Below, in pieces: positions 1,802 to 31,975 of a DNA stretch of 32,000 nucleotides; the stretch's first letter is position 1; the number at the start of each line of letters is the position of its first letter. A program made the translations under genes and the position numbers. The stretch covers positions 34,098-66,097 of the forward strand of contig DAOVER010000016.1 in the NCBI GenBank assembly GCA_030668875.1, read 5' to 3'. The notes below the pieces were generated by a model. That model searched no databases and was not told the origin of the DNA. It was given only the letters and a program-made list of their open reading frames with translations. This DNA is from Candidatus Heimdallarchaeota archaeon (GTDB lineage: Archaea; Asgardarchaeota; Heimdallarchaeia; Heimdallarchaeales; Heimdallarchaeaceae).

Positions 1802-1916
1802 TTAGAACTCCCTAACCACACAAATTATCAGGTAATGGTGCAATTTGTTCTTCTGATTCAGTTCTTTGTTTGAACTCCGGAATAAATTCTTTTAACTAAA
1901 GTATATAGGAATTTAC

Positions 1917-3549: not shown

Positions 3550-4404
3550 ATGAATAATAAAAATGTCATTGTTACTGGAGCTAATGCAGGAATTGGGAAA
3601 GAAACTGCCTTTAGGTTAGCTGAAATGGGAGCTCATGTTATACTAGTCTGTAGAAACGAGAGAAAGGGTATCAAAGTTCTGGAAGAGATAAAAGAGAAAA
3701 CAAGTAATGAAAATCTAGATTTGATGATCTGCGATTTTGCTTCTTTGAAGTCAATTAATGATTTTGTGAAGAGTTTTAAGAAGAAATACAAGCAGCTTGA
3801 TGTTCTAATCAATAACCATGGAGCTTTCTCAATAAGAAAGGCATTAACAGAAGATGGTGTTGAAACAACTTTTGCTGTTAATCATATTGGATATTTCAGC
3901 TTAACTTTACAACTACTAGATTTACTCAAAGCAAGTTCATACTCCAGAATAGTTAATGTGGCTTCAAGCTCAAATTATAGTGTGAAATCATTAAACATTA
4001 ATGATTATAATTGGGAGAAAAGAAGATATAAGATGATGGATGCTTATGCAGAATCAAAGATATAAAACATTATGTTCACTTTTCTGTTATCTGAAAAATT
4101 GAAGGGAACGAGAGTAACTGCAAACTGTCTTCATCCAGGTTATGTAAAAACTAATGTTGGACTGAACCATTTTCTGCTTAGGTTAATTGCACCATTAGTT
4201 AAAGTGGGAGCTATATCTACTGAAGAAGGAGCTAAAACTTCGTTATACTTGGCAACATCAGAAGAGGTTGAAGGAGTAACAGGAGTATATTATCACAGAA
4301 TGAAACTAAGAGAACCAAATATACTAGCACTAGATAAGAAAGCTCAACAAGAGTTATGGGACATGAGTTTGAAACTTACGGAACTTTCCTCAAATTTAAT
4401 TTGA
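3550..4404 (+). pseudogene. Short-chain dehydrogenase/reductase (retinol dehydrogenase-like classical SDR), copy 1, interrupted by an in-frame TAA
   Basis: TGANAGIG, NNHG and YAESK motifs. ORFs 3550-4065 and 4072-4404 are in the same frame, and TAA at 4063-4065 aligns with TAC (Tyr) of the intact paralog (ESKLYNIM vs ESKI*NIM). Confidence 0.88.
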
Positions 4405-7254: not shown

Positions 7255-8109
7255 ATGAAAGACAAAATTATCCTCGTTACTGGAGCAAATGCAGGAATAG
7301 GGAAAGAAACTGCTCTCAAGTTAGCTGAAATGGGAACTCAAGTTATATTAGTCTGCAGAAATGAGAAAAAGGGGATCAGTGCTCTTGAGGAGATAAGAGA
7401 GAAAACCAGTAATGATAATCTTGATTTAATGATTTGTGATTTTGCTTCTTTGAATTCAATTAATGATTTTGTGAAAAGTTTTAAGAAGAAATACAAACAA
7501 CTTGATGTTTTAATTAATAACCATGGAGCTGTCTCAATAAGAAAGGCATTAACTGAAGATGGAGTTGAAACAACTTTTGCTGTTAATCATCTTGGTTATT
7601 TCAGTTTGACTTTACAACTTCTGGATTTATTGAAAACTAGCTCATATTCCAGAATTGTTAATGTAGCTTCAAGCTCAAATTACAGAGTTAAGGAATTGAA
7701 CATCACTGATTATAATTGGGATAAGAGAAAATACAAAATGATGGATGCTTATGGTGAATCAAAACTATACAATATTATGTTTACCTTTTTACTTTCTGAA
7801 AAACTGAAAGATACAAACGTTACAGCTAATTGCCTCCATCCCGGTTATGTTAAAACTAATATTGGTTTGAATCACTTCTTGTTAAGAATGCTTCGCCCAC
7901 TTGTAAAGGTGGGAGCAGTTTCCCTAGAAGAAGGTGCACAAACAACCTTACATTTAGCTACATCATCAGAGATGGAAGGAGTTACTGGAGTATATTATCA
8001 CAGAATGAAACTAAGAGAACCAAATAAATTAGCTTTAGATCAGAAAGCTCAGCAAAAATTGTGGGATTTAAGTTTAGAATTAACTGGTTTAACTAAAGAT
8101 TTAGTGTGA
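7255..8109 (+). CDS. Short-chain dehydrogenase/reductase (retinol dehydrogenase-like SDR), intact copy 2
   Basis: TGANAGIG Rossmann motif, NNHG, VNVASSS, catalytic YGESK, LHPGYVKT. Confidence 0.93.
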   Translation: MKDKIILVTGANAGIGKETALKLAEMGTQVILVCRNEKKGISALEEIREKTSNDNLDLMICDFASLNSINDFVKSFKKKYKQLDVLINNHGAVSIRKALTEDGVETTFAVNHLGYFSLTLQLLDLLKTSSYSRIVNVASSSNYRVKELNITDYNWDKRKYKMMDAYGESKLYNIMFTFLLSEKLKDTNVTANCLHPGYVKTNIGLNHFLLRMLRPLVKVGAVSLEEGAQTTLHLATSSEMEGVTGVYYHRMKLREPNKLALDQKAQQKLWDLSLELTGLTKDLV

Positions 8110-15980: not shown

Positions 15981-16793
15981 TTAATTCCTAACATGCTTTC
16001 TAATGAGTAAAACAGAAGGTACAACGAGTATCATTAATAAAAAGAACATTGAGAATTGGTTTATATTTAATTCTGATATTATGGGTACGGGGGATTCTGC
16101 TAAAGGATAGGGATCAGCAAACTTTCCACCATCAATGGAGTAATTCCCAGTTCCAGAATAATCATTCCAAAAATTACCTTCATTTGTATTGACATCATAC
16201 CAAACAGAATAATTTCCGGCGTCATAAGCCTGAGGTATACCTAGTCCTAGAGCATTCGAAATGAAAGAATTGTGGTGAAATATATTATATTCGTTTACTA
16301 GAGGATAAAGATAGACTCCCCATTCAACATTCTCTTGTATGAGATTATAAGTAAAATTACAATGATTGGTATACGTTAGAACTATACCCATTACACTACC
16401 CATGAGAGTATTATTAGAAATAGTGTTGTTAAAGCAATATTGTATATACAAGGCATAATTTTCATTATCGTAACATTTATTGAGAGAAATATTCGAGTTA
16501 CTAACAGCCATTAAGTTTATGTCTTTATTGGTTTGATTGTAACAAACATTTCCTTTGATCTCTACTCCACCAGAATTTATTACCCTTATTCCTATTTCTT
16601 GGTTATAACAGGTATTATCTTCAACTATTGCTCCATCTATCTCTTCTAGATGCATTCCAACTGCGTTTTCAGAGCAAGTATTTTCTAGTAACAAACAATC
16701 ATACGTATCAAATAGTTCTATATCATTGTTGTTCCATTTATAAGTATTGTTAGAAAATGTACTATAATCAACATGAAGTTTAATCCTAATGCT
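15981..16793 (-). pseudogene. NosD/right-handed beta-helix surface protein, 5'-truncated
   Basis: Parallel beta-helix repeats (NNTLMG, YNLIQEN, HHNSFISN), NFWNDYSG...DPYPL, C-terminal TM plus basic tail. The frame extends upstream of TTG 16694 with more repeats (STFSNNTYKWNNNDIEL) to a TAA at 16794-16796 with no start or signal peptide. Confidence 0.7.
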
Positions 16794-17443: not shown

Positions 17444-17668
17444 TTGTTAATAAAATTTGAGATATATAAAGATGAAGACTTCTGGTGTGCAAGAGGTATT
17501 GGAATAGATATTTTTACTCAAGGTAATACAATGGATAATCTGATGGATAACATTAAGGAAGCAGTAGAAGTCCATTTTGAAGATATTTTAAACAAAGGAG
17601 AAGAGATAAGAATCCTTTCAATTTCAGAAATTGAGGTAGGTTCAGTTGCCAAAATTGCCAGTAATTAG
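17444..17668 (+). CDS. hicB: HicB family antitoxin (short, no DNA-binding domain)
   Basis: YKDEDFWCA...IFTQGNTMDNLMDNIKEAVEVHF; SD AGGTGA upstream of TTG. Confidence 0.85.
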   Translation: MLIKFEIYKDEDFWCARGIGIDIFTQGNTMDNLMDNIKEAVEVHFEDILNKGEEIRILSISEIEVGSVAKIASN

Positions 17669-17894
17669 TGGTAATCACTTAATCAAGATGTTATCAAAAT
17701 TAGGTTACAAGATAATCAGGCAAAGGGGGAGTCACGTAAGTCTAAGAAAAACAACTGAAGCTGGAGAACATAATATTACAGTCCCCTTACACTCTGAAAT
17801 TGCAAAAGGAACATTGAGTGATATATTATCAAAAATATCAATTTGGAATAATATTCCAAAGGATAAACTAATTGAAATAATAAGGAAAATCTAA
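17646..17894 (+). CDS. hicA: HicA family mRNA interferase toxin
   Basis: MPKLPVISG..LIKML.KLGY..IRQRGSHV...ITVPLHSEIAKGTLSDIL; overlaps hicB. Confidence 0.92.
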   Translation: MPKLPVISGNHLIKMLSKLGYKIIRQRGSHVSLRKTTEAGEHNITVPLHSEIAKGTLSDILSKISIWNNIPKDKLIEIIRKI

Positions 17895-18122
17895 ATAAAA
17901 AATAAGTTACTAGGAGTTCGAGTTGAAATTTTAATCTTCAAGAAAGAAAAGTCAAATGGAATAATATTTAAAAGGTTTATCTCTTTTCATTTTAATGCAT
18001 AGACTATATTCTTCTAATATAGAGGATTATTCAAGAGAATTAATATCTGTTGATCATGTGGAAAATAATTAGAGATTGAATCTTTTAATAAGTAATTGCA
18101 CTTCACTTATTTGGAGATAAAA

Positions 18123-18362
18123 ATGGCAGATGTTTGGATGGAGAATATAGCATCAAAAATAGACATATGTCATGGAAAAGTATGCATTAAGGGTACAAGA
18201 GTAATGCCTTCCGTGATTCTTGACAACTTAGCTGAAGGGTTATCTGAAGAGGAAATTCTTTCTGAATATCCTTCCTTAAAGAAAGGAGATGTTAATATTG
18301 CTATTCTCTACGCTGCTTCCTTAGCTAGAGGGGATATAATACCATTAAAGGCAGAAAGCTGA
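18123..18362 (+). CDS. DUF433 domain protein (antitoxin-like wHTH)
   Basis: ICHGKVCIKGTRVMPSVILDNLAEGLSEEEILSEYPSL; ATG 18123 with GGAG SD preferred over TTG 18096. Confidence 0.88.
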   Translation: MADVWMENIASKIDICHGKVCIKGTRVMPSVILDNLAEGLSEEEILSEYPSLKKGDVNIAILYAASLARGDIIPLKAES

Positions 18363-20590: not shown

Positions 20591-22339
20591 ATGTTCTTCA
20601 GTAGCAAAATGAAGATTGGTTTAAAATCTATAATGTTCATAATATTTATTATTTCAATTCTATTTTCTTCTATAGTTTACTCGTCATTATATTCTGTGGA
20701 ACATAAACATGATAGTATACTAGCTCAAGTGTCATTAAAAGATTCCTTGATACTTGAAAATCATGATCCAATTATCATTAATAGTGATTCAAATTTAGAT
20801 GCTTCAGGATTTCCTGGGAATGGAAATTATGCTGATCCTTACATTATAGAAAATTTTCACATAGTTACAGATGATTATTATTCCATCTCAATTTCAAGCA
20901 CATCAAAATATATTACTATTAGAAGCTGTTATACTGAATCAAAAAATTCAGGAATAAAAATTGATGATACAGTGAGTTTAAACACAGTATTGATTGAAAA
21001 TAATGAATGTAGAAATAGTGTCTATGGAATTAAGATTCGATCTTCCTCTTCAATTATTCAAAATACATGTATTAATAATACCTATGGTATTTCAATTAAA
21101 ACTTCACCTAATTCAAAGGTTCATAATAATGAATGTTTAGAGAATAAAGTAATGGGAATAACAATTTCAGGTTCAACAAATTCTGAAGTAAAGAGCAATA
21201 TTTGTTCAAATAATAAAAGAGAAGATGGAATTCATATTGACGATTCTCCTAATACAAGAATAGAAGACAATATTTGTGAGAATAATGGCTATAATGGGAT
21301 TTGGCTTCGATTTTCTCACTCATCGATTATTTCCTACAATGAATTAACAAATAACGGGTTAACAATCTACGAAGATAATGTGGAGGATTATTTGTCTCAC
21401 ACCTTTGAAGGCAATAGCGTTAACAATAAAACTCTAGGATTTTTTGAATCCCAAAAGGATATCATACTAGATGAACCAATATATGGCCAAATATTCTTAA
21501 TAGATTGTGAAAATGTCATCGTGGAAAATCAAGAGATTTATGATGCTAGTATAGGAATTAAGGTTCTATATTCCAAGTTTGTAACGATTCGAAATAATAT
21601 CTGCAATAAAAATTCTTGGTATGCAGGAATATATATTGATCTCTCTATCGGGTGCAAAGTCATTGATAATGAGTGTTTGTACAATGAAATGACCGGCATA
21701 CGAATCGCATCTTCATTAGATACAACAATAGAAAATAATCTTGTTGTCTATAATAGGATTGGAATTTCTATTGCTTATTCCTTTTTTGCAACAATTATAG
21801 ATAATCAAATACTAAATAATTCTTTTTCGGGATTAAGCGCATATGAAATTAATTCTTCTTATATTTGGAATAATACCTGTTTCAGGAATGACGCAGGAAT
21901 AGCTATAGCTGCAACTTCAGATTGTGAAATTGTAGAGAATTTATTCTTAAACAACACATTACATGGTCTAAACTTAAGATACGAGACTTATAACAATACA
22001 GTACATCACAATGCGTTTGTTGATAACAATATCAATGAATATTCTCAAGCTAAAGATGACGGTGAAGGTAACTTATGGTATGAAGTGAGTTCTGAGGAAG
22101 GAAATTACTGGTCAAATATTGGACAAAATTATACTTATATGATAGCTGGGAAAGCAAATTCCACAGATCCTTATCCATTATATGAATCACCAATATCAAT
22201 TGAACTTCCAATACTACCTATTCCCCCAGTTATAGATACTGAAGAGGTAATTTTTCAATTCTATCCTATTTACGTAATAGGCTTATTGTTTGTGATCTAT
22301 ATATTCAGGAAAAGAAGAAAAAAATGCTGCATTGACTGA
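20591..22339 (+). CDS. NosD/parallel beta-helix repeat surface protein with signal peptide and C-terminal TM anchor
   Basis: HDPIIINSDSN...GNGNYADPYIIENF lead-in, many NNxC/IxxN repeats, GNYWSN...DPYPL, TM plus RKRRKK. Confidence 0.85.
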   Translation: MFFSSKMKIGLKSIMFIIFIISILFSSIVYSSLYSVEHKHDSILAQVSLKDSLILENHDPIIINSDSNLDASGFPGNGNYADPYIIENFHIVTDDYYSISISSTSKYITIRSCYTESKNSGIKIDDTVSLNTVLIENNECRNSVYGIKIRSSSSIIQNTCINNTYGISIKTSPNSKVHNNECLENKVMGITISGSTNSEVKSNICSNNKREDGIHIDDSPNTRIEDNICENNGYNGIWLRFSHSSIISYNELTNNGLTIYEDNVEDYLSHTFEGNSVNNKTLGFFESQKDIILDEPIYGQIFLIDCENVIVENQEIYDASIGIKVLYSKFVTIRNNICNKNSWYAGIYIDLSIGCKVIDNECLYNEMTGIRIASSLDTTIENNLVVYNRIGISIAYSFFATIIDNQILNNSFSGLSAYEINSSYIWNNTCFRNDAGIAIAATSDCEIVENLFLNNTLHGLNLRYETYNNTVHHNAFVDNNINEYSQAKDDGEGNLWYEVSSEEGNYWSNIGQNYTYMIAGKANSTDPYPLYESPISIELPILPIPPVIDTEEVIFQFYPIYVIGLLFVIYIFRKRRKKCCID

Positions 22340-22541: not shown

Positions 22542-23498
22542 TTGTTAAAAGCAGAAAATGTGTCTAAGACCTATCCTATGAATGGTGTAAGAGCTTTAGA
22601 CAGTTTTTCTATCGATATTAAACCTGGAGAGATTATGGGGCTATTAGGGCCTAATGGTGCAGGTAAATCAACTTTTGTAAGAATTGCTGTTGGAGTTCTT
22701 GATAGAGATTCTGGTTCATTGTCAGTTTGCGGATGGGATTCTGATTCAGAGAGAAAGAAGATATCAAATTTAGTTTCATGGATTCCTCAAGAGGGAACTT
22801 CTAAGATGATTCTAAATAGAACTGGTCGAGAGAATATAATCTATTATTCTTGGATAAGAGGTATATCTAGAAAAGAAACAGAAAGAAGAATTGATGAGAT
22901 TCTTGAAAAATTAAACATTGAAAAAAAGATATTAAACAAAACCTACCGAATCATGAGTGGAGGACAAAAACAAATAACAAATATTATCAATGGTTTGATA
23001 ATGAATGCAAAATTATTATTTTGTGATGAGATATCAGTAAGTATTGATCCGATTATTACTAAGTCAATTTATGATTATCTCAAAGAATACACTTCTAATG
23101 GTCGTTCTGTTCTTCTTACATCACAAAATATATCAGAAGTGGAAAATCTTTCAGATAGAATAGCAATAATACAAACTGGAAAATTAGTGGCACTTGATAA
23201 ACCACGAGAAATTTCTAAAAAAATACTTAAATATGAAATCATCGACTTAAGTTTTGAAAATAGCGTTATAAAAGGTAAGGATTTTTCTAGTTTCAATTTA
23301 GAATTAGAACAACAAGACTATTTTCGATCAAAAGAGCTAAGTAATAATATTCTTCATATTAGATCCGATAACGCTAATAAATTGCTCAATTCTATCCTTG
23401 TTTTGCTAGAAAAATATTCCCTAAATCCTTCAATAGAATCTGGTAAAGCGAATCTTAGTGTAGCTCTTCAAATGCTGAAAAAGGAGGAGAAAAATTGA
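22542..23498 (+). CDS. ABC-2/DrrA-type exporter ATP-binding protein
   Basis: Walker A GPNGAGKST, signature MSGGQKQ, Walker B LLFCDEI, switch TSQN (Gln in place of His); SD GAGGT; TTG start. Confidence 0.92.
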   Translation: MLKAENVSKTYPMNGVRALDSFSIDIKPGEIMGLLGPNGAGKSTFVRIAVGVLDRDSGSLSVCGWDSDSERKKISNLVSWIPQEGTSKMILNRTGRENIIYYSWIRGISRKETERRIDEILEKLNIEKKILNKTYRIMSGGQKQITNIINGLIMNAKLLFCDEISVSIDPIITKSIYDYLKEYTSNGRSVLLTSQNISEVENLSDRIAIIQTGKLVALDKPREISKKILKYEIIDLSFENSVIKGKDFSSFNLELEQQDYFRSKELSNNILHIRSDNANKLLNSILVLLEKYSLNPSIESGKANLSVALQMLKKEEKN

Positions 23499-24337
23499 GG
23501 ACTTTCTATGCGAATTTCTGGAGAGAAATGAAATACAACCTTGGTCGAAGAGGTGTATGGATGGGAAGACTAGTAAATGTTACTGTCTCCATAATTACAG
23601 CATTCGCAATGGGGATTATTTATTCTTTTAGTGCTGAAGCTCAAACAACTGTAGGAATAGCAAATGTTGGCTTGTTTCTCTTAACTGGTTTTTTCTTACA
23701 GTATTTAGTTCTTTCAAGTGTTACAATAGCTCCTAATACTTTTTGGGGTGATATAAGAAGTGGATCTTTCGAATTCATCTTTCACTATGAATTTAGTATC
23801 TCTGAATATATTTTTGGAATTTACTTTGCTCAGTTTATTATAGACTTCGTTATTTCTTTGCCTTTTCTTATTGCAATTATTATCGTAGCAGCAGGACAAT
23901 CAACTCCAGCCATTCTCATCATCTCGTTTATTGGGTTCCTTATTTTTTCGTTCCTGTGTTTATTTTCTATTACAATGTTATACTCTTCTCTTTATGTTCT
24001 AAGTAAACAATTTATGGGTTATCATGGAGCTGTTACTTATATCGCTTATTTCATCTGTGGTGTCTATTTCCCTATTTTAGGATATCTTTCTCTCTTTGGA
24101 ACAAAAGCAGGATGGGCGATAATTGGTGTAATTTCTATTCTCCCATATACGCAAGTATTTGACATCGCTAGATACATTATTTTCGGTCAAAATTATGTTC
24201 TTGCTTATCCTACTCTATGGCTAGCTTTTCTAATCATGATTTCTACCTCAGTTATTTTCTATGTCTTATCACTAATCATATTCAGGAAAGGTTTCAAAAA
24301 TCTGAGAAAGGAAGGTTTCGCAGCTTACCGTTACTAA
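23495..24337 (+). CDS. ABC-2 type exporter permease
   Basis: About 6 TM, DIRSGSFEF motif, ICGVYFPI, SILPYTQVFDIARY; 4-nt overlap with the ATPase. Confidence 0.88.
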   Translation: MRTFYANFWREMKYNLGRRGVWMGRLVNVTVSIITAFAMGIIYSFSAEAQTTVGIANVGLFLLTGFFLQYLVLSSVTIAPNTFWGDIRSGSFEFIFHYEFSISEYIFGIYFAQFIIDFVISLPFLIAIIIVAAGQSTPAILIISFIGFLIFSFLCLFSITMLYSSLYVLSKQFMGYHGAVTYIAYFICGVYFPILGYLSLFGTKAGWAIIGVISILPYTQVFDIARYIIFGQNYVLAYPTLWLAFLIMISTSVIFYVLSLIIFRKGFKNLRKEGFAAYRY

Positions 24338-24408
24338 TTTTCTTACACAGAAAATTTAATATCAAGTTATACTACTTTCTAGAAAGAGTTGAATATCGAG
24401 GGAATAAA

Positions 24409-25509
24409 ATGAATAAGGAAGAACAACCAATAACTCCTACATTACCTTACGTTTTTCAAACCAAAGTTACTCAACAAGGCATTATAACAATCCCCTACAC
24501 TTTAAAATTAGATTTAGATAAGCATTATTTGTTCAATTTCCAACCTCTAAAAAGTGAAATCATATATTCCCAGGTTAAACAGATAAAACATTCAGGACAA
24601 AGACAATATGTTTCTTGTCGAATTAAATCTCCTTTCTTGCAAAAGGGAGATGAAGTAAAGATTACCATAATCAAGGAATTTAAAGCTTCATCAGAGCTTA
24701 CATTTGATGATGATGAAGAGTATTCTCTCTTGTTTAACCAATCTGTTCGATGTTTATTTCTGTACTCTTTTCAAGAGAAAGATGAAATCTTGACTGCAGA
24801 GGAAAGCAAAGACTTTCTATGTGAGTATCCAAATTTCACTCAACAGGAGTTTATCAAAAACTCCCTTGATTTGCTTAGCAAGAAAAACATTTTATTTGAA
24901 AAAGAAGAAGGAGAATTCTTTGATATATTACGTTTTCAAAATTATGCTGTAATTAGGTTTGTTGGAACGAAAAGATTATTGAGTTTTGATATCCTTCAGC
25001 AAAAACCCTCAGAAGAGGCAAAAATTGCCTATGAAACACATATTCCATTTGTCTTCCTTGTTCTAACAAAGATTGATTACCTTCAATTTTTACTCTCTCA
25101 ACATATTAGAACTAGATTCAAACTCTTTCTAGATAAATTTCAAAGTGTATCATCATATCTACCTTATGTGATTAAGGAGTTTTCTTCACTTCTACAGAGT
25201 GAAATATTTGAGATAATGACCAAGGCTGATGATAGTATAAGAAAATTTAACAGTCTTGATGATGTGAGATTCTGGTTCTTTATACCTGCTGAATATCATG
25301 ATCTAATCAAAAAAATCCAGATGGATTTTTACTCAGGAAAGAAATTTGTAATAATAAACGAATTGATAGAATCAATTAAAACTAAAGATGGAAATCTTGA
25401 AGCAAAGCAACTCGTAGTTAATGCAATAGAATGGTTGTATAGGCACCAAGTGATAAATGTAAGAGAGATGGATGGAGAGAAAATAGTGGAGATGTATAAG
25501 ATTGAATAA
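24409..25509 (+). CDS. Hypothetical protein: N-terminal AbrB/swapped-hairpin-like domain plus probable winged-helix domains
   Basis: FQTKVTQQGIITIPYTLK and LQKGDEVKITI match the AbrB pattern; helix-helix-hairpin segments SLDLLSKKNILFEKE and AIEWLYRHQVINVRE. ATG 24409 preferred because the track start 24217 lies inside the permease. Confidence 0.55.
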   Translation: MNKEEQPITPTLPYVFQTKVTQQGIITIPYTLKLDLDKHYLFNFQPLKSEIIYSQVKQIKHSGQRQYVSCRIKSPFLQKGDEVKITIIKEFKASSELTFDDDEEYSLLFNQSVRCLFLYSFQEKDEILTAEESKDFLCEYPNFTQQEFIKNSLDLLSKKNILFEKEEGEFFDILRFQNYAVIRFVGTKRLLSFDILQQKPSEEAKIAYETHIPFVFLVLTKIDYLQFLLSQHIRTRFKLFLDKFQSVSSYLPYVIKEFSSLLQSEIFEIMTKADDSIRKFNSLDDVRFWFFIPAEYHDLIKKIQMDFYSGKKFVIINELIESIKTKDGNLEAKQLVVNAIEWLYRHQVINVREMDGEKIVEMYKIE

Positions 25510-26308
25510 ACAATATAAAAAATTAAATTCTCATGTTATTAGCTTCTATTCATATAGAGGTGGAACAGGAAAATCAACCGTCGCGTCGAACCTTGCTACA
25601 GTCTCTGCAAAAAAACACAAAACAATTCTCGTAGATTTAGATCTCTATTCTCCTCAACTAACATACATCTTTGAGAAAACAAGCAAGAATTACATCAATG
25701 ATTATCTGCACTCCTCGCTCTTCACATCTAAACATGCTAGAAATAGAATTGAAAGCTTAGATGAGGTGATTTGTGAAAGCTCGTTTGAAAACCTTGATCT
25801 TATATTAGCAAACCCTAAGATGTCTCTCACTGATAACACAATTTTGCATGATGAAGTAATTACAAAAAAAGTTTTTCCTTGCTTCCAACATATGATAGAA
25901 TTACTCAAAACCCAATATGAAGTAATAATCCTAGATTGCCCTGGAGAATTGAATTACTATACACTTAATGGAATAGCTGTAGCAGATAGAGCGGTAGCAG
26001 TAAGTATACCCACCATAGCTAATGTAAAGGGAATGATAGAATTATTGAAAATTTTTAGTTCTGCACTTCAAGGTAAAAAAACTGATATCATTCTGATGAT
26101 GATAACTCCAAGACCTTCAAAAAAGAAAATAGAGAAATTAGTAGAATGGAAACAAGAACTCGAAAAATTTGAAGTGGAAAATTATCTTTGTTTTGATTAT
26201 TCAGAAAACATTGCTTATAGACATCAATTTGAAGATGACTTCTTTTATCTCCCAGAAGAGGAGGAGTATCAGAAATTGGAAGAATACCTGACTGCAATTC
26301 TGAAGTGA
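25502..26308 (+). CDS. MinD/ParA family ATPase
   Basis: Deviant Walker A variant SYRGGTGKST, LVDLDLYSP, IILDCPG, ADRAVAV; overlaps both neighbours. Confidence 0.88.
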   Translation: MNKQYKKLNSHVISFYSYRGGTGKSTVASNLATVSAKKHKTILVDLDLYSPQLTYIFEKTSKNYINDYLHSSLFTSKHARNRIESLDEVICESSFENLDLILANPKMSLTDNTILHDEVITKKVFPCFQHMIELLKTQYEVIILDCPGELNYYTLNGIAVADRAVAVSIPTIANVKGMIELLKIFSSALQGKKTDIILMMITPRPSKKKIEKLVEWKQELEKFEVENYLCFDYSENIAYRHQFEDDFFYLPEEEEYQKLEEYLTAILK

Positions 26309-27627
26309 CTAACATGGAACTCAAAACTCTGCTTTCGGTAAAGAAAAAGGATAAATGGATACATTATAATCTGATAAACCAAACAATGGTAAAAACTTCT
26401 CTTTCTCCAACAGAGTTAGATAGATCTCCTTCAGATATCAAAGAAGAGCTGTTGTATGGTACAGATAAAGAAATGCTAATAGAATCTCACAAGCTATATT
26501 ATCAAAAAATAAAGAAGGAAATGATGAAGAAAAGAGAGTTGAATTCTCCTTTTCTATCAAGAAGTGAAGTTAATCTAACTCTATGGTATGATTGTAACTT
26601 TGATTGTCCATATTGTTACCAACAAGAAGAATATTATGCTGGAGCAAAAGAAAGCGATAAAATCAATATAGAGAAGACCTTAGAATTCTTTAGAAATAAA
26701 TCAAAAAATGATGAATTTCCTCCAAAAACTGTTGTTTTCATAGGAGGTGAACCTTTACTAAAAGGTAAGAGAAATAGAGATACTATAATAACACTAATGG
26801 GATATCTCAATGAACACTTTCCTGGAATTGAAATACACGTCATCTCAAATGGTTATCTTTTAGGTGAGTATGCTGAAACCCTTTCTAAATTCAAGGATTT
26901 GAATTTCGTATTGACAATTACTCTGGGTTCTACAAGAAAAAACCACAAGTATGAAAGAATTCTCAAAACCAATAATTCAGTAGATACTTTTGAGCAAATC
27001 TTCGTAGGTATGAAGGAATTCAGAAAAAAAATTCCTAAGGGTTGGATTAATATTAGAATGAATTTTGCAAAGGATTACAGAGAAGTAGATGATACAAAGG
27101 AATTGATGTATCTGATTAAAAAAGAAATACCAGATGTAAGATTTGAACTCTCTCCAGTAGTTTCATTTTCGAATCATCAAGAAATTGGCTTAGGGTTTTT
27201 CAAATTGCTTAAGGATTTAATGTCAAATGAGGTTTTTTCTAAGTCCTTCGTAATGAAACTAAATGACAATCTATACTTCTTACTACGCAATTCAATTCCA
27301 CAACTAGAAAATAAGGAAATTTCATCAAAACCAAAAATATGCAATGCAGTTTCTTTTACAACAAACTATGATTTGTTCTCAGACTTCCAAATTCAACCTT
27401 GTGAGGATTTTAGATATTATAAGAGAATAGATGTGGATGATTTGAAAATATCAGATCTCTTCTTAGAATCTCTTGATAAGAGAGTAGAGCAATGTATAGA
27501 TTGCCCTTTTTTTGTAGGTTGTATTTCAAATCCATGTAAAATAATAAAAAGAAAAACTATAGCGAAAAAAGTATGCTATGAAAAAGAATTATTACCACTC
27601 TTTCAAATAATTGAAGAATTTTATTGA
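26305..27627 (+). CDS. Radical SAM/SPASM-domain enzyme, putative peptide maturase
   Basis: CNFDCPYC (CxxxCxxC), FIGGEPLL, ISNG; seven C-terminal Cys (KIC..QPC..CIDCPFFVGCISNPC..KVC) in SPASM spacing; about 85-aa N-terminal extension resembling an RRE. Confidence 0.88.
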   Translation: MTNMELKTLLSVKKKDKWIHYNLINQTMVKTSLSPTELDRSPSDIKEELLYGTDKEMLIESHKLYYQKIKKEMMKKRELNSPFLSRSEVNLTLWYDCNFDCPYCYQQEEYYAGAKESDKINIEKTLEFFRNKSKNDEFPPKTVVFIGGEPLLKGKRNRDTIITLMGYLNEHFPGIEIHVISNGYLLGEYAETLSKFKDLNFVLTITLGSTRKNHKYERILKTNNSVDTFEQIFVGMKEFRKKIPKGWINIRMNFAKDYREVDDTKELMYLIKKEIPDVRFELSPVVSFSNHQEIGLGFFKLLKDLMSNEVFSKSFVMKLNDNLYFLLRNSIPQLENKEISSKPKICNAVSFTTNYDLFSDFQIQPCEDFRYYKRIDVDDLKISDLFLESLDKRVEQCIDCPFFVGCISNPCKIIKRKTIAKKVCYEKELLPLFQIIEEFY

Positions 27628-27682
27628 ACTATAAAAGGGAATATATTTAAAAGAGCGAGTGTCATTAATGTAACAAGGTGCT

Positions 27683-27871
27683 ATGATGGGAAGAAAAGAT
27701 AAGAAAACAGAAGAAAACACAGCATTTGAAGTGCTTTTACGAAATACCAGTGGTGTAAACCCTGGTATTGAAACAGTTTATGATCCTCCAGGTGATCTGC
27801 CAGGAAATTGTAACCAATCTACAGCAAATCTTTCTGTTCGATCCTCAGTCTGTGATATTTTACTGATGTAA
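27683..27871 (+). CDS. 62-aa peptide, candidate RiPP precursor
   Basis: Strong SD AGGTG (27676-27680); 55 nt after the rSAM gene; charged N-terminal leader-like part and a Pro/Gly/Asn/Ser-rich C-terminal part with Cys43 and Cys57. Confidence 0.65.
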   Translation: MMGRKDKKTEENTAFEVLLRNTSGVNPGIETVYDPPGDLPGNCNQSTANLSVRSSVCDILLM

Positions 27872-27896
27872 TAAGGTGGTACTATGAGGAGAATTG

Positions 27897-29585
27897 GTGT
27901 TTAAAATACTATTCTCTTTCATTTACTTGAAGAAAAATCATCCTTTAAGGGAGAGTGTACTAGAATCTAGTAAACTTTTTTGTAATTATTCAGCTTCAGA
28001 TTCTGATTTGATAGAATCAGCAAGAAAGTTACTAAAAATTTCAAAAAACCATCAGCTAAAGGACGAAGAATTGTTTACAATAAAATCTACAGTAGATTGT
28101 ATTGAAGTTTTTCTAAGGGATTATGACTTTAAGAGATTTGATGAAATTTGTGCAAAAGCAAAGACTGGAGGATATCTTGAAAGTTATGTTGATTTATTAC
28201 TCTTAAAGGGTTTCATTCTATGTTCTTCCAGTATGTCTGGAATAAATCGTGCTTTTAGAATAAGAGAAAAAGAGAAAATTTTTACTTCATTGAATGAAAT
28301 TGGTGTGGAAGAGAACATCTATCTAGACTTAATATATGGGAAGTATCTCTTCATCAAGGGAGATGAGAAACAAGCTGCAATACTTTATGAAAAACTAAAA
28401 AACAAAATTGATCAGGATGATTGTGCTGCTAAAGTTATTCTCTTGAATCTTCTCTTCTGTATATACGAGCGAGATCCTACCAAACAGCTTGCTATTATAC
28501 AAGAAGGTTTGAATGGAACTTGCTTCTATTGGAATTTCGTTATTCAATATATTGACTTTTTAACACAAAGAGGAAGATATGTTGAACTAATAAACGAAGG
28601 TTCTATTTTTTTGCATAAACTAAATGAAAACAATGAAGAAAATAGAATTCCTAATGAACTTAATATTTTGGACCATATGATAAAAGCATCCTTTAAATTG
28701 AATGAGCAAGATAAATTGCATAATTATTGTCATCAATTTAGGAAATCTCTAGACACACTTCCCGAGGATGATCATGGTATGAAAAAAAATTACGCGTTTC
28801 TTCAATTCACACATGAGGTTTTATATCAAGTACTTTTTGAAGAGGAATTACTAATTGATTTGAGTGAAAAAACTATCCTCAATTATAGCACAAATCATTA
28901 TCTGAAAATGTTGAGGTCATTTCTTATCCTGAACCCATTAATAAGTAGGTTGATACAAGATAATGAATTTGATCAAGCTTTTACTTATATAAACAATATC
29001 GAAAGAGGAAAAGGTTATTCTAGCTCTACTGATGATTTATTAACTTTCATTAAAAATTTCTTTCTTTCACTTCTTATTGATAAATCACTAAAATGGAAGA
29101 AGTACAACAGTAAAAACTATGAAGGGGATCAGACTGAAGTAGCGTTAACCTATTTAGAAGAAGCTGTTGCATATCTGGGTGAACTTGATTATTCATTCAA
29201 AATAGCATCTATTCTTCAAGAAATTATCTTGAAATCTAGATTAGGTAGATTAGACGAAGTAAAAGAAACAGTTTTAGATGAAATACTGCTAACTGAAGGT
29301 TATGATCGTATACTTTCATTGATGGTATCACTGCTATACTATTCGGGTAAAGAGGAGATAGATAAATATCGGCAAATCAAAGAGATATTACTCTACGAAC
29401 TTGACAAATATAGAAACTTGAATTCTTATACTACATGGAAAAAACATCTAAGTGATATCTTTTCATTCTTAGATGTCAAAGACAAAGTTCTCTCTACAAA
29501 GAAAACATCATTTTTAGATATAGAACAAATCAAATCCTATACATCTTTCTTACAAAATCAGCTTAACAAACAACTGATTCAGTAA
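27897..29585 (+). CDS. Alpha-helical repeat (TPR-like) protein
   Basis: About 560 aa of amphipathic helices with TPR-like segments (YGKYLFIKGDEKQAAILYEKL; ALTYLEEA); no catalytic motif recognised; start uncertain (TTG 27894, GTG 27897, or out-of-frame ATG 27884). Confidence 0.6.
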   Translation: MFKILFSFIYLKKNHPLRESVLESSKLFCNYSASDSDLIESARKLLKISKNHQLKDEELFTIKSTVDCIEVFLRDYDFKRFDEICAKAKTGGYLESYVDLLLLKGFILCSSSMSGINRAFRIREKEKIFTSLNEIGVEENIYLDLIYGKYLFIKGDEKQAAILYEKLKNKIDQDDCAAKVILLNLLFCIYERDPTKQLAIIQEGLNGTCFYWNFVIQYIDFLTQRGRYVELINEGSIFLHKLNENNEENRIPNELNILDHMIKASFKLNEQDKLHNYCHQFRKSLDTLPEDDHGMKKNYAFLQFTHEVLYQVLFEEELLIDLSEKTILNYSTNHYLKMLRSFLILNPLISRLIQDNEFDQAFTYINNIERGKGYSSSTDDLLTFIKNFFLSLLIDKSLKWKKYNSKNYEGDQTEVALTYLEEAVAYLGELDYSFKIASILQEIILKSRLGRLDEVKETVLDEILLTEGYDRILSLMVSLLYYSGKEEIDKYRQIKEILLYELDKYRNLNSYTTWKKHLSDIFSFLDVKDKVLSTKKTSFLDIEQIKSYTSFLQNQLNKQLIQ

Positions 29586-29833
29586 GAGCAAATAAGTTTT
29601 CACAGATTTTTCTTTTAAAAACTATATAAAGATGAAACAAAAATTTTCAAATAAGCGAAATTTAGTGGTTTTTTTAGCAAAGAATTATTTTGCCACTTTT
29701 TTTGTATGTTCTTTTTAAAACCCTTTTTTGATATTTATATCTCTTTGAGAATTGTTGTATAGTTCTCTCAGCCTCTTCTAAGGAAGATAGTTGGAGAGGA
29801 CCATAAATGAATAAACAATAAAAAACAAAAAAA

Positions 29834-31975
29834 GTGAAAAAAATGAAAAACGCGAAAAAAACAATTGTCCTCGTAACGTTTTTTATTACAATTTTTTTAG
29901 CAAGTAATATTTCTAATGTTATGAGTTTTAGTTTTGAACCAGAACCCCCTCCAGATGATCCTCCTCCTACCCCCCCACCCCCCGCAGATACAACAAACCC
30001 ATCTATAACAATCACTTCACCTGGAAATGGAGCTATTTTATATGAAACAACGACTATAAAAGCTACAGCTACAGATAATGTTGGAATTCTTCAAGTTACG
30101 TTTAGCATGGATGGCAACCAGCTAGGTTATGATACATCATCACCTTATGAAGTTACTTTTAATGCGATAAACTATGACGAGGGATATCATACAATTACTG
30201 CATTAGCTATTGATACAAGCTATAATACTAAATCTAGTAGTATTACAGTACAAATCAAGAGACCATTTGCACTAGAAGTAGAGAGAAATGACTTCACCTA
30301 CACAGACGATTACTTTAAACAATTGTGGTTATTAGATTTATGCAATTGGGATACAGTAAATTACAACTATCATGCTAGAAGTTGTGATGATGGTATTGTA
30401 GAGATAAGTGAAGTTTCTGGTAAAGCTGGATCTTCAGCATATGTTTCTGGTGCTCTCGATCTGAGTAGTTGGACTGGAATAGGTGATTTGAATTTAGAAA
30501 TAAAGGTTCGAGTCCAAAGTAGCTATTGTGGATCTTCCTCTGTTACTCAGCTTCGCTTAGGAATAGTTACGTGGGGCGAAAGTCCAGTAACTAAATGGTC
30601 CTATTATGAAAAATTTACTTACACTAAAGATACAGGCTGGATTGTAAAACAAATAACTATCCCTGAAGAAAATCTAATCTCATATGGAGGTTATTACAGA
30701 TTCTACTGGGGATTCTATGATAGTTGGTCTCATGATTGGAATCAAAAAGTGAGTATAGACTATCTAAAGGTGACTGGTGATGCTTATCCTGAGGCTACAT
30801 TGATTCGTGCTCAAGAAGCTGTGACAACAAAACCTCAAGTGAATGCATTTATGATAGAACCTGAATTTGATCATGATAGAGTAGATATTGGTTATAGCAC
30901 CAAAGTTTCTGGAATTGATACTCTTGGATTTGGATATGTAGATGAACCACTAATTGAATCAGCTATTCAGATTGTACTTGATCCCGATGAAGACAAAAAT
31001 GCTGCTCACTATCGTTACAATTTAGTTGATTTTGTGATGATTACAATACAAATTGAAAATGTCATATCCGGAAATCTATATGAACCTCGATTAGAGGGAG
31101 TATGGACTAATGAGGTAAACGAAGTTGAAGGAGATATGGCAGAGTTGGATACATTTTGGGACGTGGTAGGTCTTATTGGAACATATGTAGCAGCTGCTGC
31201 GGGCATTATATGTTTAATTCCTGGAGGGCAAATTGCGGCTCCTGTTGCTGCCGTTGGAGGTATTGTTTCAGGACTAGCCGCTTTGGGTGGTGCTATCACC
31301 GATTATGCAACGAAGGAATATGAGACGTATACTCTGACCACAGTTTATGATCCTACTGCCAAAAAGACTTATGTAAAAATTGATTTCAATGAACCTAAAC
31401 TTGGTTCTACAGATTTAAAACTTAAACTTGCAGTTAGACCAATTTTTGATTTCATAAATAACAGAAATACCTATTACAGAGTTAAAATTGATTATGATGT
31501 AGGGCTTAAACATGTCCAACATAGAATTAACAAAGAAACAGACTTTGCTCCAATTTCCTATTCTGAATGTTTTGATTATATTACCTATGATACTACACAA
31601 GACAATGTAAGGATTGTTGATAAAAATAGTTGTACCTTTTTAGATGGTACGCTAATGGATTTTTATTTCAATGCCCCAGTTAGTTTGTCAGGCGATCCAG
31701 GTGATTATGTTCTTGAAACTGTTAACGGTCCTCAATGGTATCTAGTTGTAGGTTCATCTGGAAACTCAGTATATTTAGATGCACCAGATCAATTTACATA
31801 CTCAATTTTGTTTGTAGATCATCTTTTCCAATTTGAAAAAATAGAAATGAGATACTGGCAACCGACTGTACTTCAATTGAATCCGATTAGTTATGCCTCA
31901 AATCAAATAAACAGAATTTTAGAAATTAATGTTCTGTTCTATCAATTTAGAATAGAATACAATCAGATAACTTAA
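29834..31975 (+). CDS. Secreted protein: signal peptide, Pro-rich linker, bacterial Ig-like (Big) domain, beta-rich domains, Gly/Ala-rich hydrophobic hairpin
   Basis: PEPPPDDPPPTPPPPA; DTTNPSITITSPGNG...ATATDNVGILQVTF..DG...YDEGYHTITALAID is a typical Big domain; DVVGLIGTYVAAAAGIICLIPGGQIAAPVAAVGGIVSGLAALGGAIT; no C-terminal anchor. Confidence 0.72.
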   Translation: MKKMKNAKKTIVLVTFFITIFLASNISNVMSFSFEPEPPPDDPPPTPPPPADTTNPSITITSPGNGAILYETTTIKATATDNVGILQVTFSMDGNQLGYDTSSPYEVTFNAINYDEGYHTITALAIDTSYNTKSSSITVQIKRPFALEVERNDFTYTDDYFKQLWLLDLCNWDTVNYNYHARSCDDGIVEISEVSGKAGSSAYVSGALDLSSWTGIGDLNLEIKVRVQSSYCGSSSVTQLRLGIVTWGESPVTKWSYYEKFTYTKDTGWIVKQITIPEENLISYGGYYRFYWGFYDSWSHDWNQKVSIDYLKVTGDAYPEATLIRAQEAVTTKPQVNAFMIEPEFDHDRVDIGYSTKVSGIDTLGFGYVDEPLIESAIQIVLDPDEDKNAAHYRYNLVDFVMITIQIENVISGNLYEPRLEGVWTNEVNEVEGDMAELDTFWDVVGLIGTYVAAAAGIICLIPGGQIAAPVAAVGGIVSGLAALGGAITDYATKEYETYTLTTVYDPTAKKTYVKIDFNEPKLGSTDLKLKLAVRPIFDFINNRNTYYRVKIDYDVGLKHVQHRINKETDFAPISYSECFDYITYDTTQDNVRIVDKNSCTFLDGTLMDFYFNAPVSLSGDPGDYVLETVNGPQWYLVVGSSGNSVYLDAPDQFTYSILFVDHLFQFEKIEMRYWQPTVLQLNPISYASNQINRILEINVLFYQFRIEYNQIT

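Follow-up and report, generated by a model that had tools for sequence, protein, structure and literature searches.

A candidate radical SAM/SPASM-like peptide modification operon with ParA-like, AbrB-like/winged-helix and solenoid partners in an Asgard archaeon

Results

Organization of the operon

The window analysed is a 32,000-nt stretch of DNA from an uncultured Heimdallarchaeota-type Asgard archaeon from marine sediment, in agreement with the archaeal host that the first-pass annotation had assigned from the sequence alone. Nucleotides 22542–29585 contain seven ORFs, all on the plus strand and overlapping or abutting, as that annotation had described. Genes 1 and 2 overlap by 4 nt and a 68-nt gap precedes gene 3; overlaps of 8 nt (genes 3 and 4) and 4 nt (genes 4 and 5) are followed by gaps of 55 nt and 22 nt before genes 6 and 7, respectively. 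A T-rich intergenic stretch (29586–29833) with several runs of 5–7 T directly after the last stop codon likely marks the operon end, and we infer that these runs constitute an archaeal oligo-T terminator. No mobile-element genes or tRNA were found at the operon borders, and its base composition is that of the surroundings. Five kb upstream there is a hicBA-like pair.

The downstream gene (29834–31975, plus strand) encodes a 713-aa secreted or membrane protein with a Big_7 domain (PF17957, 67 bits) and hydrophobic segments at the N-terminus and at two internal positions. Orthologues follow the related locus L001 (84% identity) and lie 3′ of both peptide genes of L003 (36% identity), whereas in locus L012 ABC genes come after the counterpart of Y, the last gene of the operon described here. 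As a conserved neighbour separated from Y by 248 nt with T-runs, it is of uncertain membership in the system.

The first gene (22542–23498, plus strand) encodes a 318-aa drrA-like ABC transporter ATP-binding protein with a C-terminal extension, matching PF00005 (ABC_tran) with 87.6 bits and TIGR01188 (drrA) with 175.9 bits, the latter under the model cut-off. The second (23495–24337, plus strand) encodes a 280-aa integral membrane permease with six predicted TM segments, apparent as hydrophobic stretches. It matched ABC2_membrane only below threshold, with E 0.14, and the best orthologue reached 1.2e-5. The ABC ATPase named previously was confirmed, and its partner is probably an ABC-2 type permease.

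The third gene (24406–25509, plus strand) encodes an orphan 367-aa protein, designated X. The ATG at 24406, rather than the previously chosen start at 24217, is most likely correct; all homologues have the 367-aa form. X has no sequence match in Pfam, NCBIfam or PDB. VIA-align comparisons of a predicted AF2 model (pLDDT 73.7) related residues 11–96 to PhS018 (2glw, Z 8.8), residues 109–270 to the FLCN longin domain (6nzd_H, Z 9.0), residues 111–274 to 8yqg (Z 8.1) and residues 280–367 to winged helices (Z about 9); in AFDB the SpoVT/AbrB protein Q5JD22 was matched with probability 1.0. X is predicted to combine an AbrB-like swapped-hairpin barrel, a longin-like domain, and a long helix with a winged helix. 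The barrel and winged helix had been recognized earlier, but the longin-like middle domain had been missed. The X family comprises only six clusters among 1.84 billion representatives.

The fourth gene (25502–26308, plus strand) encodes a divergent 268-aa ATPase of the ParA/MinD superfamily, as had been proposed; AAA_31 was matched with 77 bits, and CbiA, ParA and MipZ were also matched. The best match to PDB profiles reached only 44 bits. Walker A reads SYRGGTGKST, and RGGTGKST, DLDLYSPQL and D145 are invariant; no Cys residue or metal motif is conserved across the compared homologues.

The last gene (27894–29585, plus strand) encodes the 563-aa orphan protein Y, which matches no family in Pfam or NCBIfam. 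Its AF2 model (27 helices, pLDDT 73.7) resembled TPR/PPR solenoids in Foldseek at probability 1.0, bearing out the TPR-like assignment made before. Y is conserved in L001, L002, L003 and L012 and is also present at the start of the remaining DNA of L010; no Cys or His is invariant once the L012 member joins the alignment. The operon genes encode neither a leader peptidase nor any other tailoring enzyme.

The radical SAM enzyme

The fifth gene (26305–27627, plus strand; alternative start ATG 26314) encodes a 440-aa radical SAM (rSAM) enzyme (PF04055, 52.6 bits) with an N-terminal domain of about 90 aa and a 7-Cys SPASM-like C-terminal domain. The CX3CX2C motif (C97/C101/C104), the GGEPLL motif and all seven C-terminal Cys residues (C346, C366, C397, C400, C406, C411 and C424) are invariant, the cysteines in seven homologues. 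The rSAM core, N-terminal domain and seven cysteines therefore stand as first annotated, but a SPASM model match does not: the C-terminal domain of the window enzyme gave none at E≤10 in Pfam and NCBIfam or at E≤0.01 in the genome search, and TIGR04085 (SPASM) matched three relatives with 19.8, 15.4 and 14.1 bits, all under the cut-off. RRE models had also been suggested; no RRE/PqqD signal was detected by sequence.

In a profile search of PDB the best solved relative was CteB (5wgg, E 5.8e-11), with anSME at E 0.02 and SkfB at E 0.8. The best NCBIfam matches of all seven family members were CefB, PapB, TIGR04463, FlmE/OhkG and Clo7bot, to which the alignments begin in register inside the maturase N-terminal domains; that to PapB extends to residue 401, within the Cys domain. 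The enzyme reaches no family model (best 54.6 bits versus cut-offs of 340–600). Models for anSME, MoaA and tungsten-cofactor maturases are also matched weakly, and in all seven members peptide maturases outscore anSME and MoaA. Kinship with peptide maturases rather than sulfatase maturases, as anticipated, is thus upheld. Distant bacterial relatives of the enzyme adjoin small ORFs and ABC transporters, in clusters that contain no ParA, X or Y.

The candidate precursor peptide

The sixth gene (27683–27871, plus strand) encodes a candidate 62-aa precursor peptide. The ORF is genuine, and homologous ORFs occur in other loci; where a Shine–Dalgarno sequence had been noted, AAGGTG precedes the ATG by 5 nt. 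The peptide has a basic N-terminus, an amphipathic leader-like FEVLLRN segment, a Pro/Asp-rich linker and a C-x13-C core. Homologues are present singly in L001, L002 and L010 and in two copies in L003, where the genes are relocated 3′ of the solenoid gene. All six type-1 ORFs are kept in frame and all six contain Cys43; G24, N26, I29, D38, C43, S51, R53, S54 and C57 are invariant in a five-sequence alignment. The second Cys is not universal: the G019 peptide keeps the first one only, which speaks against a simple disulfide. A candidate ORF of 57 aa with two Cys occupies the same place in the type-2 locus L012 and aligns poorly to the type-1 peptide (8% identity). The first-pass annotation had asked whether a short Cys peptide accompanies each homologous rSAM enzyme; one does in every readable locus, peptide and enzyme being co-inherited.

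Between close loci the peptide evolves with a dN/dS of 0.19–0.47 and a dN about 5-fold that of the operon enzymes, as is typical of precursors. A peptide profile searched against the genomes matched only the locus copies. Complex prediction for the rSAM enzyme with the peptide gave a score of 0.39 (runs 0.52, 0.11 and 0.39; best control 0.00), the runs sharing at least 50% of contacts with a partner pLDDT of at least 36. Of 80 solved complexes, 58 reached the mark for such predictions, as did 2 of 110 mismatched pairs; at scores of 0.60 or below, only 7 of the 80 solved complexes reached it, plus both passing mismatches. The prediction weakly favours the pairing.

Recurrence and conservation of the gene set

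At least six loci, which fall into three diverged subtypes, carry the gene set. It recurs in L001, L002, L003, L010 and L012, and in part also in L009 and L021; this recurrence is more than chance. Among the 399 Asgard genomes searched the system is present in three, all of one genus (3 of its 24 genomes), with two paralogous loci in one genome. ABC exporter genes belong to both the type-1 and type-2 sets. They head the type-1 loci, the ATPase gene is at the tail of L012, and ABC and peptide genes change position among some subtypes while the set remains the same. The order X, ParA-like, rSAM is kept wherever visible in types 1, 2 and 3, with overlapping or abutting stop and start codons, and the ParA-like gene is directly 3′ of X in every subtype. 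A divergent double-wHTH gene adjoins the type-2 and type-3 loci.

The most conserved operon genes are those for the ParA-like ATPase, which has the lowest dN/dS of the operon (0.11–0.12), and X, rather than the rSAM gene. On one 3.7-kb contig ParA is followed by a minus-strand 190-aa gene instead of the rSAM gene, and then by a cut plus-strand gene. Because of this conservation and this contig, the X–ParA pair may be the functional centre of the system. No X-family member was seen where absence of an rSAM gene could be shown.

Discussion

We consider that the operon is, with a probability of about one half, a new and very narrowly distributed rSAM/SPASM RiPP-like system predicted to produce a Cys-cross-linked, exported peptide, with ParA/X and Y as accessory components. 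The 62-aa product would be the precursor, and its conserved amphipathic N-terminal half would serve as a recognition (leader) sequence that docks on the rSAM enzyme at its N-terminal domain of ~90 residues. The enzyme would cleave SAM at the CX3CX2C cluster, its seven C-terminal Cys residues holding two auxiliary clusters, and would join Cys43 (and Cys57, in peptides that have it) to a carbon atom in a second core residue, yielding a thioether of the sactionine/ranthionine type. Export of the product, or protection of the producing cell, may fall to the DrrA-like ATPase with its 6-TM partner. The least certain step concerns the ParA-like ATPase and the translationally coupled X, which might form an ATP-dependent switch that, with solenoid Y, regulates the operon or organizes a precursor–enzyme–exporter complex.

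An unlikely alternative is an intracellular signalling or conflict (anti-selfish-element) system gated by a peptide, with the ParA-like ATPase and DNA-binding X as its core, Y as sensor, the rSAM-modified peptide as ligand, signal or effector, as suspected for Fxs, and an ABC pump that handles the peptide or confers immunity. Such a role is possible because similar, mainly archaeal ParA–wHTH dyads have been cast as putative immunity modules, in which the gene coupled to that for ParA encodes a long helix and wHTH, sometimes with a profilin-longin-like fusion (Li, Burroughs and Aravind, bioRxiv 2026, doi 10.64898/2026.10.19.760177). Compared by description, X fits this elaborated partner; the fixed succession and strong constraint of X and ParA, the patchy distribution, the fast-evolving peptide, the hicBA-like pair and the double-wHTH neighbour also agree, and rSAM peptides with NTPase/TPR proteins have precedent (eLife 2020). 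However, in the ConB2 clade that holds the ParA–wHTH system Arg replaces the P-loop Lys (KGGVGR; doi 10.64898/2026.10.19.760177), whereas RGGTGKS here carries Arg for the first Lys and retains the P-loop Lys, and the KGGVGR model was missed (53.6 versus 90 bits). PADLOC gave only generic ATPase and viperin-like radical SAM similarity, no toxic effector domain could be recognized in the operon, Y does not resemble FxsT in sequence, the borders and composition give no sign of a mobile element, and the preprint reports no rSAM/peptide link for the dyads.

Less probable still is that X–ParA is an independent module (regulator, partition-like or defence) nested in a conventional rSAM–peptide–ABC cluster, taking no part in maturation, with Y as a generic scaffold. 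AbrB and wHTH domains typically belong to transcription factors, the distant bacterial rSAM relatives do without ParA, X and Y, and no rSAM gene directly follows ParA on the 3.7-kb contig. That contig, however, ends in a cut plus-strand gene, X is never seen in a demonstrably rSAM-free context, and the X–ParA–rSAM order was held tightly while ABC and peptide genes moved. It is very improbable that the rSAM enzyme matures a protein or metallocofactor, with the ParA-like protein as a SIMIBI metal/cluster-delivery chaperone (HypB, CooC and NifX/NifU-associated ParA clades) and a target that might be the downstream surface protein or a cofactor moved by the ABC system: metal-centre insertion is common among SIMIBI ATPases, ParA clades beside rSAM–wHTH, NifX and ferredoxin genes are on record, anSME, MoaA and tungsten-cofactor maturase models match weakly and the Big_7 gene is a conserved neighbour, but peptide maturases score higher in 7 of 7 members, the ParA-like protein has neither a conserved Cys nor a metal motif, the small ORF is inherited together with the enzyme and duplicated in one locus, and the Big_7 gene lies beyond the T-runs and does not follow Y in the type-2 locus.

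Returning to the peptide-modification reading, the operon makes a good candidate for a modified-peptide system of a new kind because a putative rSAM enzyme, Cys peptide and exporter are joined by three partners not described in the compared clusters. The suspicion that this combination was undescribed holds for the whole set, of which we found no description in the literature searched; its parts are less novel, since the ParA and wHTH dyad has been described and rSAM–peptide–NTPase/TPR sets exist in Fxs.

Close in layout are the CteB/SCIFF and PapB thioether (ranthipeptide/sactipeptide) maturases (Clostridium thermocellum CteA/CteB, PDB 5wgg; PapB, NF047865; SCIFF maturase, TIGR03974), which likewise have an N-terminal domain of ~90 aa, a CX3CX2C core with GGEPLL and a 7-Cys C-terminal domain. 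An adjacent small Cys peptide gene is also common to both, and thioether chemistry is predicted here. The enzyme scores 39–55 bits against CteB/PapB-type families (cut-offs 340–600), the peptide carries one Cys residue or two and lacks the six-Cys SCIFF motif, the host is archaeal, and X, ParA and Y are additional. Canonical SPASM Cys spacing is CX2CX5CX3C, whereas that found here is CX2CX5CX4C.

The Bacillus subtilis subtilosin alb and skf operons follow a like logic, uniting a precursor, an rSAM/SPASM enzyme (AlbA/SkfB) and a DrrA-like ATPase/ABC-2 permease for export or immunity, with SkfB matched only at E 0.8 in the PDB profile search. AlbE/F-like and CAAX-type peptidases are absent here, and we know of no counterparts of ParA, X or Y in those operons. 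With the ParA–wHTH system, X shares its described layout and a position always 5′ of the ParA-like gene; X differs in its extra AbrB-like barrel, the ParA-like ATPase in its RGGTGKS motif, and the dyad lies inside an rSAM/peptide/ABC/solenoid operon, a context not in the preprint.

The actinobacterial Fxs system (FxsA peptide, FxsB rSAM/SPASM TIGR04269, FxsC and FxsT TPR/STAND) likewise brings together an rSAM/SPASM-modified peptide, an NTPase and a TPR-repeat protein. FxsB is matched weakly by the rSAM family (best member, E 1.3e-10); Y has no sequence match to FxsT, nor any operon gene to FxsC. The archaeal system lacks TIR and STAND domains and its peptide does not end in FxSxx, whereas it includes an ABC exporter and belongs to an archaeal lineage.

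Seven co-oriented genes form a conserved locus

Seven plus-strand ORFs lie between 22542 and 29585, in agreement with the first-pass annotation except for the start and domain content of the third gene and the strength of the SPASM signal. The locus opens with an ABC ATPase gene (22542-23498), which overlaps by 4 nt the gene for a 280-aa membrane protein (23495-24337). These are followed by the gene for X, a 367-aa orphan protein whose start was set by its homologues (ATG at 24406, extending to 25509), and by genes for a ParA/MinD-like ATPase (25502-26308; 8-nt overlap with X) and a radical SAM enzyme (26305-27627; 4-nt overlap with the ParA gene). The last two ORFs encode a 62-aa peptide (27683-27871), with AAGGTG upstream, and Y, a 563-aa predicted solenoid protein (27894-29585). 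T runs lie directly after Y, and the following gene begins 248 nt further on. Searches of the operon with Pfam and NCBIfam found no peptidase gene. G+C content is about 31% all through the window, and the locus has no compositional break; with neither an integrase nor a tRNA, and with composition continuous with the surroundings, an integrated mobile element was rejected. NosD/right-handed beta-helix proteins are encoded upstream of the operon at 15981-16694 (minus strand) and 20591-22339 (plus strand). In the former, a protein of 237 aa, the match is confined to the final portion of the NosD model (positions 31-212), with a membrane anchor after it; it is possibly a truncated copy.

Distribution and gene order

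The source assembly of the window (3.2 Mb) is 92% complete, and two further genomes of the same genus carry the system, including Candidatus Heimdallarchaeota archaeon YT1_002. Within the genus, the radical SAM gene was found in 3 of 24 genomes, and it was not found in the 36 others searched from the class; an X profile matched 3 of 399 Asgard genomes, all of that genus; since most of the assemblies searched are 63-96% complete, a missing gene means 'not found' here rather than 'absent'. Among 5.8 billion protein clusters the enzyme had five close relatives and X had six, and when the X profile was run as a full HMM search over 1.84 billion representatives, six clusters only were returned. Scanning genome contigs with the radical SAM protein yielded only a distant Bacteroidales relative. 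In bacteria, distant relatives of the enzyme have small ORFs and ABC transporter genes as neighbors and lack ParA, X and Y. Four DNA sequencing runs, all from one study of marine sediment, contain the stretch itself and may be its source; the listed sequencing runs containing it include no RNA run.

The same seven genes occur on two metagenome contigs (L001 and L002), in identical order, and on a Heimdall contig (L003), where the order differs and two copies of the peptide gene both lie downstream of Y. A fifth locus of this type 1, in genome G019 (L010; enzyme 47% identical), contains the ABC, permease, X, ParA and radical SAM genes, followed by an ORF of 66 aa and the first part of Y. The window's own genome also holds a paralogous second locus (type 2, L009; contig C20, 1-2916), in which genes for X (371 aa), ParA (271 aa) and the radical SAM enzyme run to the contig edge; the core proteins are 29-42% identical to those of the window. 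No second copy of Y to complete this locus was found in that genome, where the type-1 profile matched the window copy only. The full metagenomic counterpart of the second locus (L012) reads X, ParA, radical SAM, a candidate 57-aa ORF with two Cys residues, Y and ABC ATPase, with the transporter at the tail, whereas it is at the head in type 1. A third, more distant type (L021) consists of X, ParA and radical SAM genes followed by the contig edge. Thus the order X, ParA, radical SAM is constant while the other genes shift, which argues for joint action of these proteins.

Two further genes neighbor some of these loci. Divergently from X, loci L009 (2996-3505), L012 (2112-2537, minus strand) and L021 (57-629, minus strand) encode a small protein in which reading of the sequence suggests a wHTH-like repeat, single or double; it may be a dedicated regulator, and the window's type-1 locus does not contain it. 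Downstream of the operon, the window encodes a secreted Big_7-domain protein (29834-31975, plus strand), whose sequence includes a Pro-rich linker and a double hydrophobic segment rich in Gly and Ala. Orthologues lie downstream of type-1 loci L001 (11403-12581, 84% identity) and L003 (12127-14049, 36%), and the type-2 locus does not include such a gene. A link between this protein and the operon system is possible.

The radical SAM enzyme resembles peptide maturases

The enzyme matched PF04055 at 52.6 bits (cut-off 29.5), placing it in the radical SAM superfamily. C97-x3-C101-x2-C104 and GGEPLL are invariant in seven homologues, as are seven C-terminal cysteines arranged as C346-x19-C366-x30-C397-x2-C400-x5-C406-x4-C411-x12-C424. 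A SPASM domain was defined by seven Cys residues in the form CX9-15GX4C ... CX2CX5CX3C ... C, reaching TIGR04085 / PF13186. Three relatives scored 19.8, 15.4 and 14.1 bits against TIGR04085, all below the cut-off of 27; this model left the window copy unmatched in a genome-wide search at E<=0.01, and PF13186 gave no match in the enzyme. Pfam and NCBIfam searches with the C-terminal 117 and N-terminal 92 residues of the window enzyme returned neither SPASM nor PqqD. Of the first-pass assignment of a seven-cysteine SPASM domain in a radical SAM protein, the radical SAM core and the cysteines stand, but the SPASM models themselves respond weakly, and only in relatives.

The N-terminal domain of about 90 residues is conserved, with W18, Y21, N22, Q26, T31 and P35 invariant. 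In RRE-bearing RiPP maturases an N-terminal PqqD-like recognition element binds the leader; in the window enzyme, residues 1-92 matched no PqqD/RRE model in Pfam. Alignments to the models for CefB, FlmE/OhkG, StsB and HxsB start at residues 30-42 and keep the register of the N-domains of those models, and the PapB alignment extends through residue 401.

In a PDB profile search CteB ranked first (E 5.8e-11), followed by ChlB, MoaA, viperin, anSME (0.02) and SkfB (0.8). The best NCBIfam models for all seven members were peptide maturases (CefB, PapB, TIGR04463, FlmE/OhkG and Clo7bot), with scores of about 40-60 bits against cut-offs of 340-600. The enzyme fell short of the SCIFF/ranthipeptide equivalogs (TIGR03974, 39.6 of 425 bits; PapB NF047865, 52.6 of 340) and of the sactipeptide maturases AlbA (NF012164), SkfB (TIGR04403) and StsB (NF045574), StsB giving 26.9 of 625 bits. 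An anaerobic sulfatase-maturing enzyme was rejected: TIGR03942 gave 39.4 bits against a cut-off of 349, anSME ranked far behind CteB in the PDB search, and the window contains no sulfatase gene, so that the automatic JGI name 'AslB' for two of the proteins (P0002 and P0003) is unsupported. Given a SPASM-like layout that reaches no named maturase family, we treat the enzyme as a putative new radical SAM/SPASM subfamily.

At other places, this genome codes for at least four canonical SPASM radical SAM proteins and one further, sub-threshold protein (contigs C33, C22, C50, C40 and C91; loci L029-L033). One is NirJ/PqqE-like, one is nif11/PapB-like, and the sub-threshold protein on C91 is metalloenzyme-maturase-like. 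When the enzyme family profile was compared with two genomic SPASM proteins using hhalign, only the radical SAM core aligned.

A small peptide is co-inherited with the enzyme

It had been predicted beforehand that a short Cys-containing peptide should accompany each homologue of the enzyme, and this was the case in the loci whose DNA could be read: a homologous small ORF lies beside or near the radical SAM gene in all five type-1 loci, and the type-2 locus has a candidate ORF. The general mark of a RiPP cluster, a precursor gene co-inherited with its modifying enzyme, is therefore present. In genomes G000 (the window's own) and G005, a peptide profile matched the locus copies only. Five type-1 peptide sequences align over their full length, with G24, N26, I29, D38, C43, S51, R53, S54 and C57 invariant. 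A basic N-terminus is followed by an amphipathic F/L-E/K-V/I-L/I segment, a G-x-N-x-x-I motif with a Pro/Asp-rich linker, and a C-x13-C core; the six-Cys SCIFF motif is missing. The peptide of G019 keeps the leader-like part and the first Cys only; a frameshift behind the loss of the second was rejected, as no alternative frame restores a Cys.

The window peptide is 52-56% identical to those of L001 and L002, compared with 79-93% for the enzymes, and the peptide dN exceeds that of the enzymes about fivefold. Its dN/dS was 0.33-0.47 for the window against L001 and L002, and 0.19 for L001 against L002, indicating a coding ORF under weaker or diversifying constraint. Complex prediction for enzyme and peptide gave a weak score of 0.39 (best control 0.00), with a partner pLDDT of 36-40.

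X and the ParA-like ATPase

X belongs to no sequence family in Pfam or NCBIfam. A sequence profile search of the PDB returned nothing at E<=10, Foldseek against the PDB returned nothing at E<=0.001, and an ESM Atlas search by features gave no usable match. The AF2 model (pLDDT 73.7) has three domains. Residues 11-96 resemble the single-chain AbrB-like barrel of PhS018 (2glw; Z 8.8, rmsd 3.1, 83 residues aligned) and also a Thermococcus SpoVT/AbrB protein. The segment 109-274 is longin-like and resembles the domains of FLCN (6nzd_H, Z 9.0) and a Lokiarchaeal Roadblock-Longin protein (8yqg, Z 8.1), with further likenesses to Lst4, SMCR8 and NPRL2 in the Atlas. Residues 280-367 are modeled as a winged helix (Z ~9, many tied matches). 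As such Z values fall in a range where only a common arrangement may be shared, X is likely, but not certain, to combine an AbrB-like barrel, a longin-like domain and a winged helix. The gene first annotated as AbrB/wHTH exists, but its start and domain content had to be amended.

The ATPase matched AAA_31 at 77.3 bits (cut-off 27) and CbiA at 35.5 bits (cut-off 25.4), which assigns it to the ParA/MinD (SIMIBI) group. A ParA is characterized by a deviant Walker A motif, xKGGxGK[ST], together with the Walker A' and B aspartates. SYRGGTGKST, DLDL and ILD145 are invariant in this family, with Arg in place of the signature Lys in 7/7 sequences. It is distant from every solved ATPase (<=44 bits) and is the product of the most constrained gene of the operon (dN/dS 0.11). 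A role like that of the Fe-S ATPases NifH or Nbp35 was rejected, as the lack of a conserved Cys argues against it.

Y and the transporter

The predicted model of Y is a 27-helix TPR/PPR-like solenoid. Foldseek matched it to TPR/PPR solenoids with a probability of 1.0 but TM values of 0.2-0.4, and no TPR model of Pfam was reached. Once the type-2 member is added to the alignment, no Cys or His is invariant, which fits a binding or scaffolding role for Y rather than catalysis. An ABC-2 type exporter of the DrrAB kind pairs an ABC_tran ATPase with an ABC2_membrane permease. The first gene of the operon matched PF00005 at 87.6 bits, as expected of an ABC ATPase. Its partner, the permease, has six TM segments; PF01061 stayed below its cut-off, with 12.1 bits in the window copy and E 1.2e-5 in the best orthologue.

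Other genes in the window

A PAS-domain histidine kinase gene adjoins the gene for a DUF438/hemerythrin/PAS_10 protein at 86-3338 (minus strand), a pair that probably serves oxygen or redox sensing. At 3550-4404 (plus strand) a short-chain dehydrogenase gene is split by one in-frame TAA (4063-4065) into ORFs 3550-4065 and 4072-4404, which share a frame and whose combined length equals that of an intact paralogue (7255-8109). Read-through, a nonsense mutation or an error in the assembly could each explain the split. Overlapping ORFs of 74 and 82 aa at 17444-17894 (plus strand), judged by eye, resemble a HicB/HicA toxin-antitoxin pair, and an 88-aa ORF behind them (18096-18362) appears DUF433-like on the same basis.

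Discussion

We propose that the operon encodes a radical SAM/SPASM RiPP-like system in which the conserved Cys of the neighboring peptide would become cross-linked and the ABC pair would export the peptide, and we put the probability of this reading at about 0.5. The gene set, the motifs and the co-inheritance of peptide and enzyme are observed, while the chemistry, the export and the functions of X, ParA and Y are inferred. In the operon, putative peptide maturation is linked with a ParA-type ATPase and a protein that has a longin domain. If these accessory proteins act in maturation or export, they would represent a new organisation of RiPP biosynthesis. The seven genes also make a compact, conserved test case. 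X, Y and the peptide are all without a family.

Longin domains are prominent in NTPase regulation in Asgard archaea and eukaryotes. An alternative is that the operon, rather than being a RiPP cluster of the conventional antibiotic type, encodes a peptide-controlled NTPase switch of a new class in Asgard archaea, in which Y would read the cross-linked peptide and X would relay the signal to ParA. The switch would then act either on DNA, by regulating genes or intercepting invading DNA, or on the exporter. We consider this switch unlikely. If true, it would connect a ribosomal peptide signal with a regulatory longin-NTPase pair resembling those of eukaryotes. The lack of a peptidase gene in the operon, the very strong conservation of X and ParA, and a preprint in which similar dyads are read as immunity modules (Li, Burroughs and Aravind, bioRxiv 2026, doi 10.64898/2026.10.19.760177) keep a signalling or conflict reading open beside the RiPP-like system.

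Reports of archaeal ranthipeptide-type clusters have so far come from genome mining, and in the library searched we found no description of a radical SAM peptide system from Asgard archaea. The Fxs system, a radical SAM peptide with TIR/STAND/TPR proteins, is a conceptual parallel; no Fxs-specific NCBIfam model was matched by Y or the other partners. PADLOC returned only generic ATPase/viperin-like similarity. The suggestion of the first-pass annotation that the combination may be undescribed holds for the gene set, on which no paper was found, but a similar ParA and wHTH dyad appears in the preprint. This mainly archaeal 'ParA-wHTH system' is proposed to coat invading DNA, and its wHTH carries a long helix at the N-terminus and, in some cases, a fused profilin-longin-like domain (Li et al. 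2026). The clade holding it, ConB2, is defined by KGGVGR, in which Arg replaces the P-loop Lys (Li et al. 2026). In contrast, the window ParA lacks this signature: the KGGVGR variant model (NF047398) gave 53.6 bits against a cut-off of 90, and the motif RGGTGKS retains the P-loop Lys. Nor do Li et al. (2026) report a link of the ParA-wHTH system to radical SAM or peptide genes. The predicted architecture and the gene coupling of X and ParA nevertheless fit that system, and if the peptide controls a ParA switch, the operon would offer a tractable archaeal ParA-wHTH example with a defined ligand.
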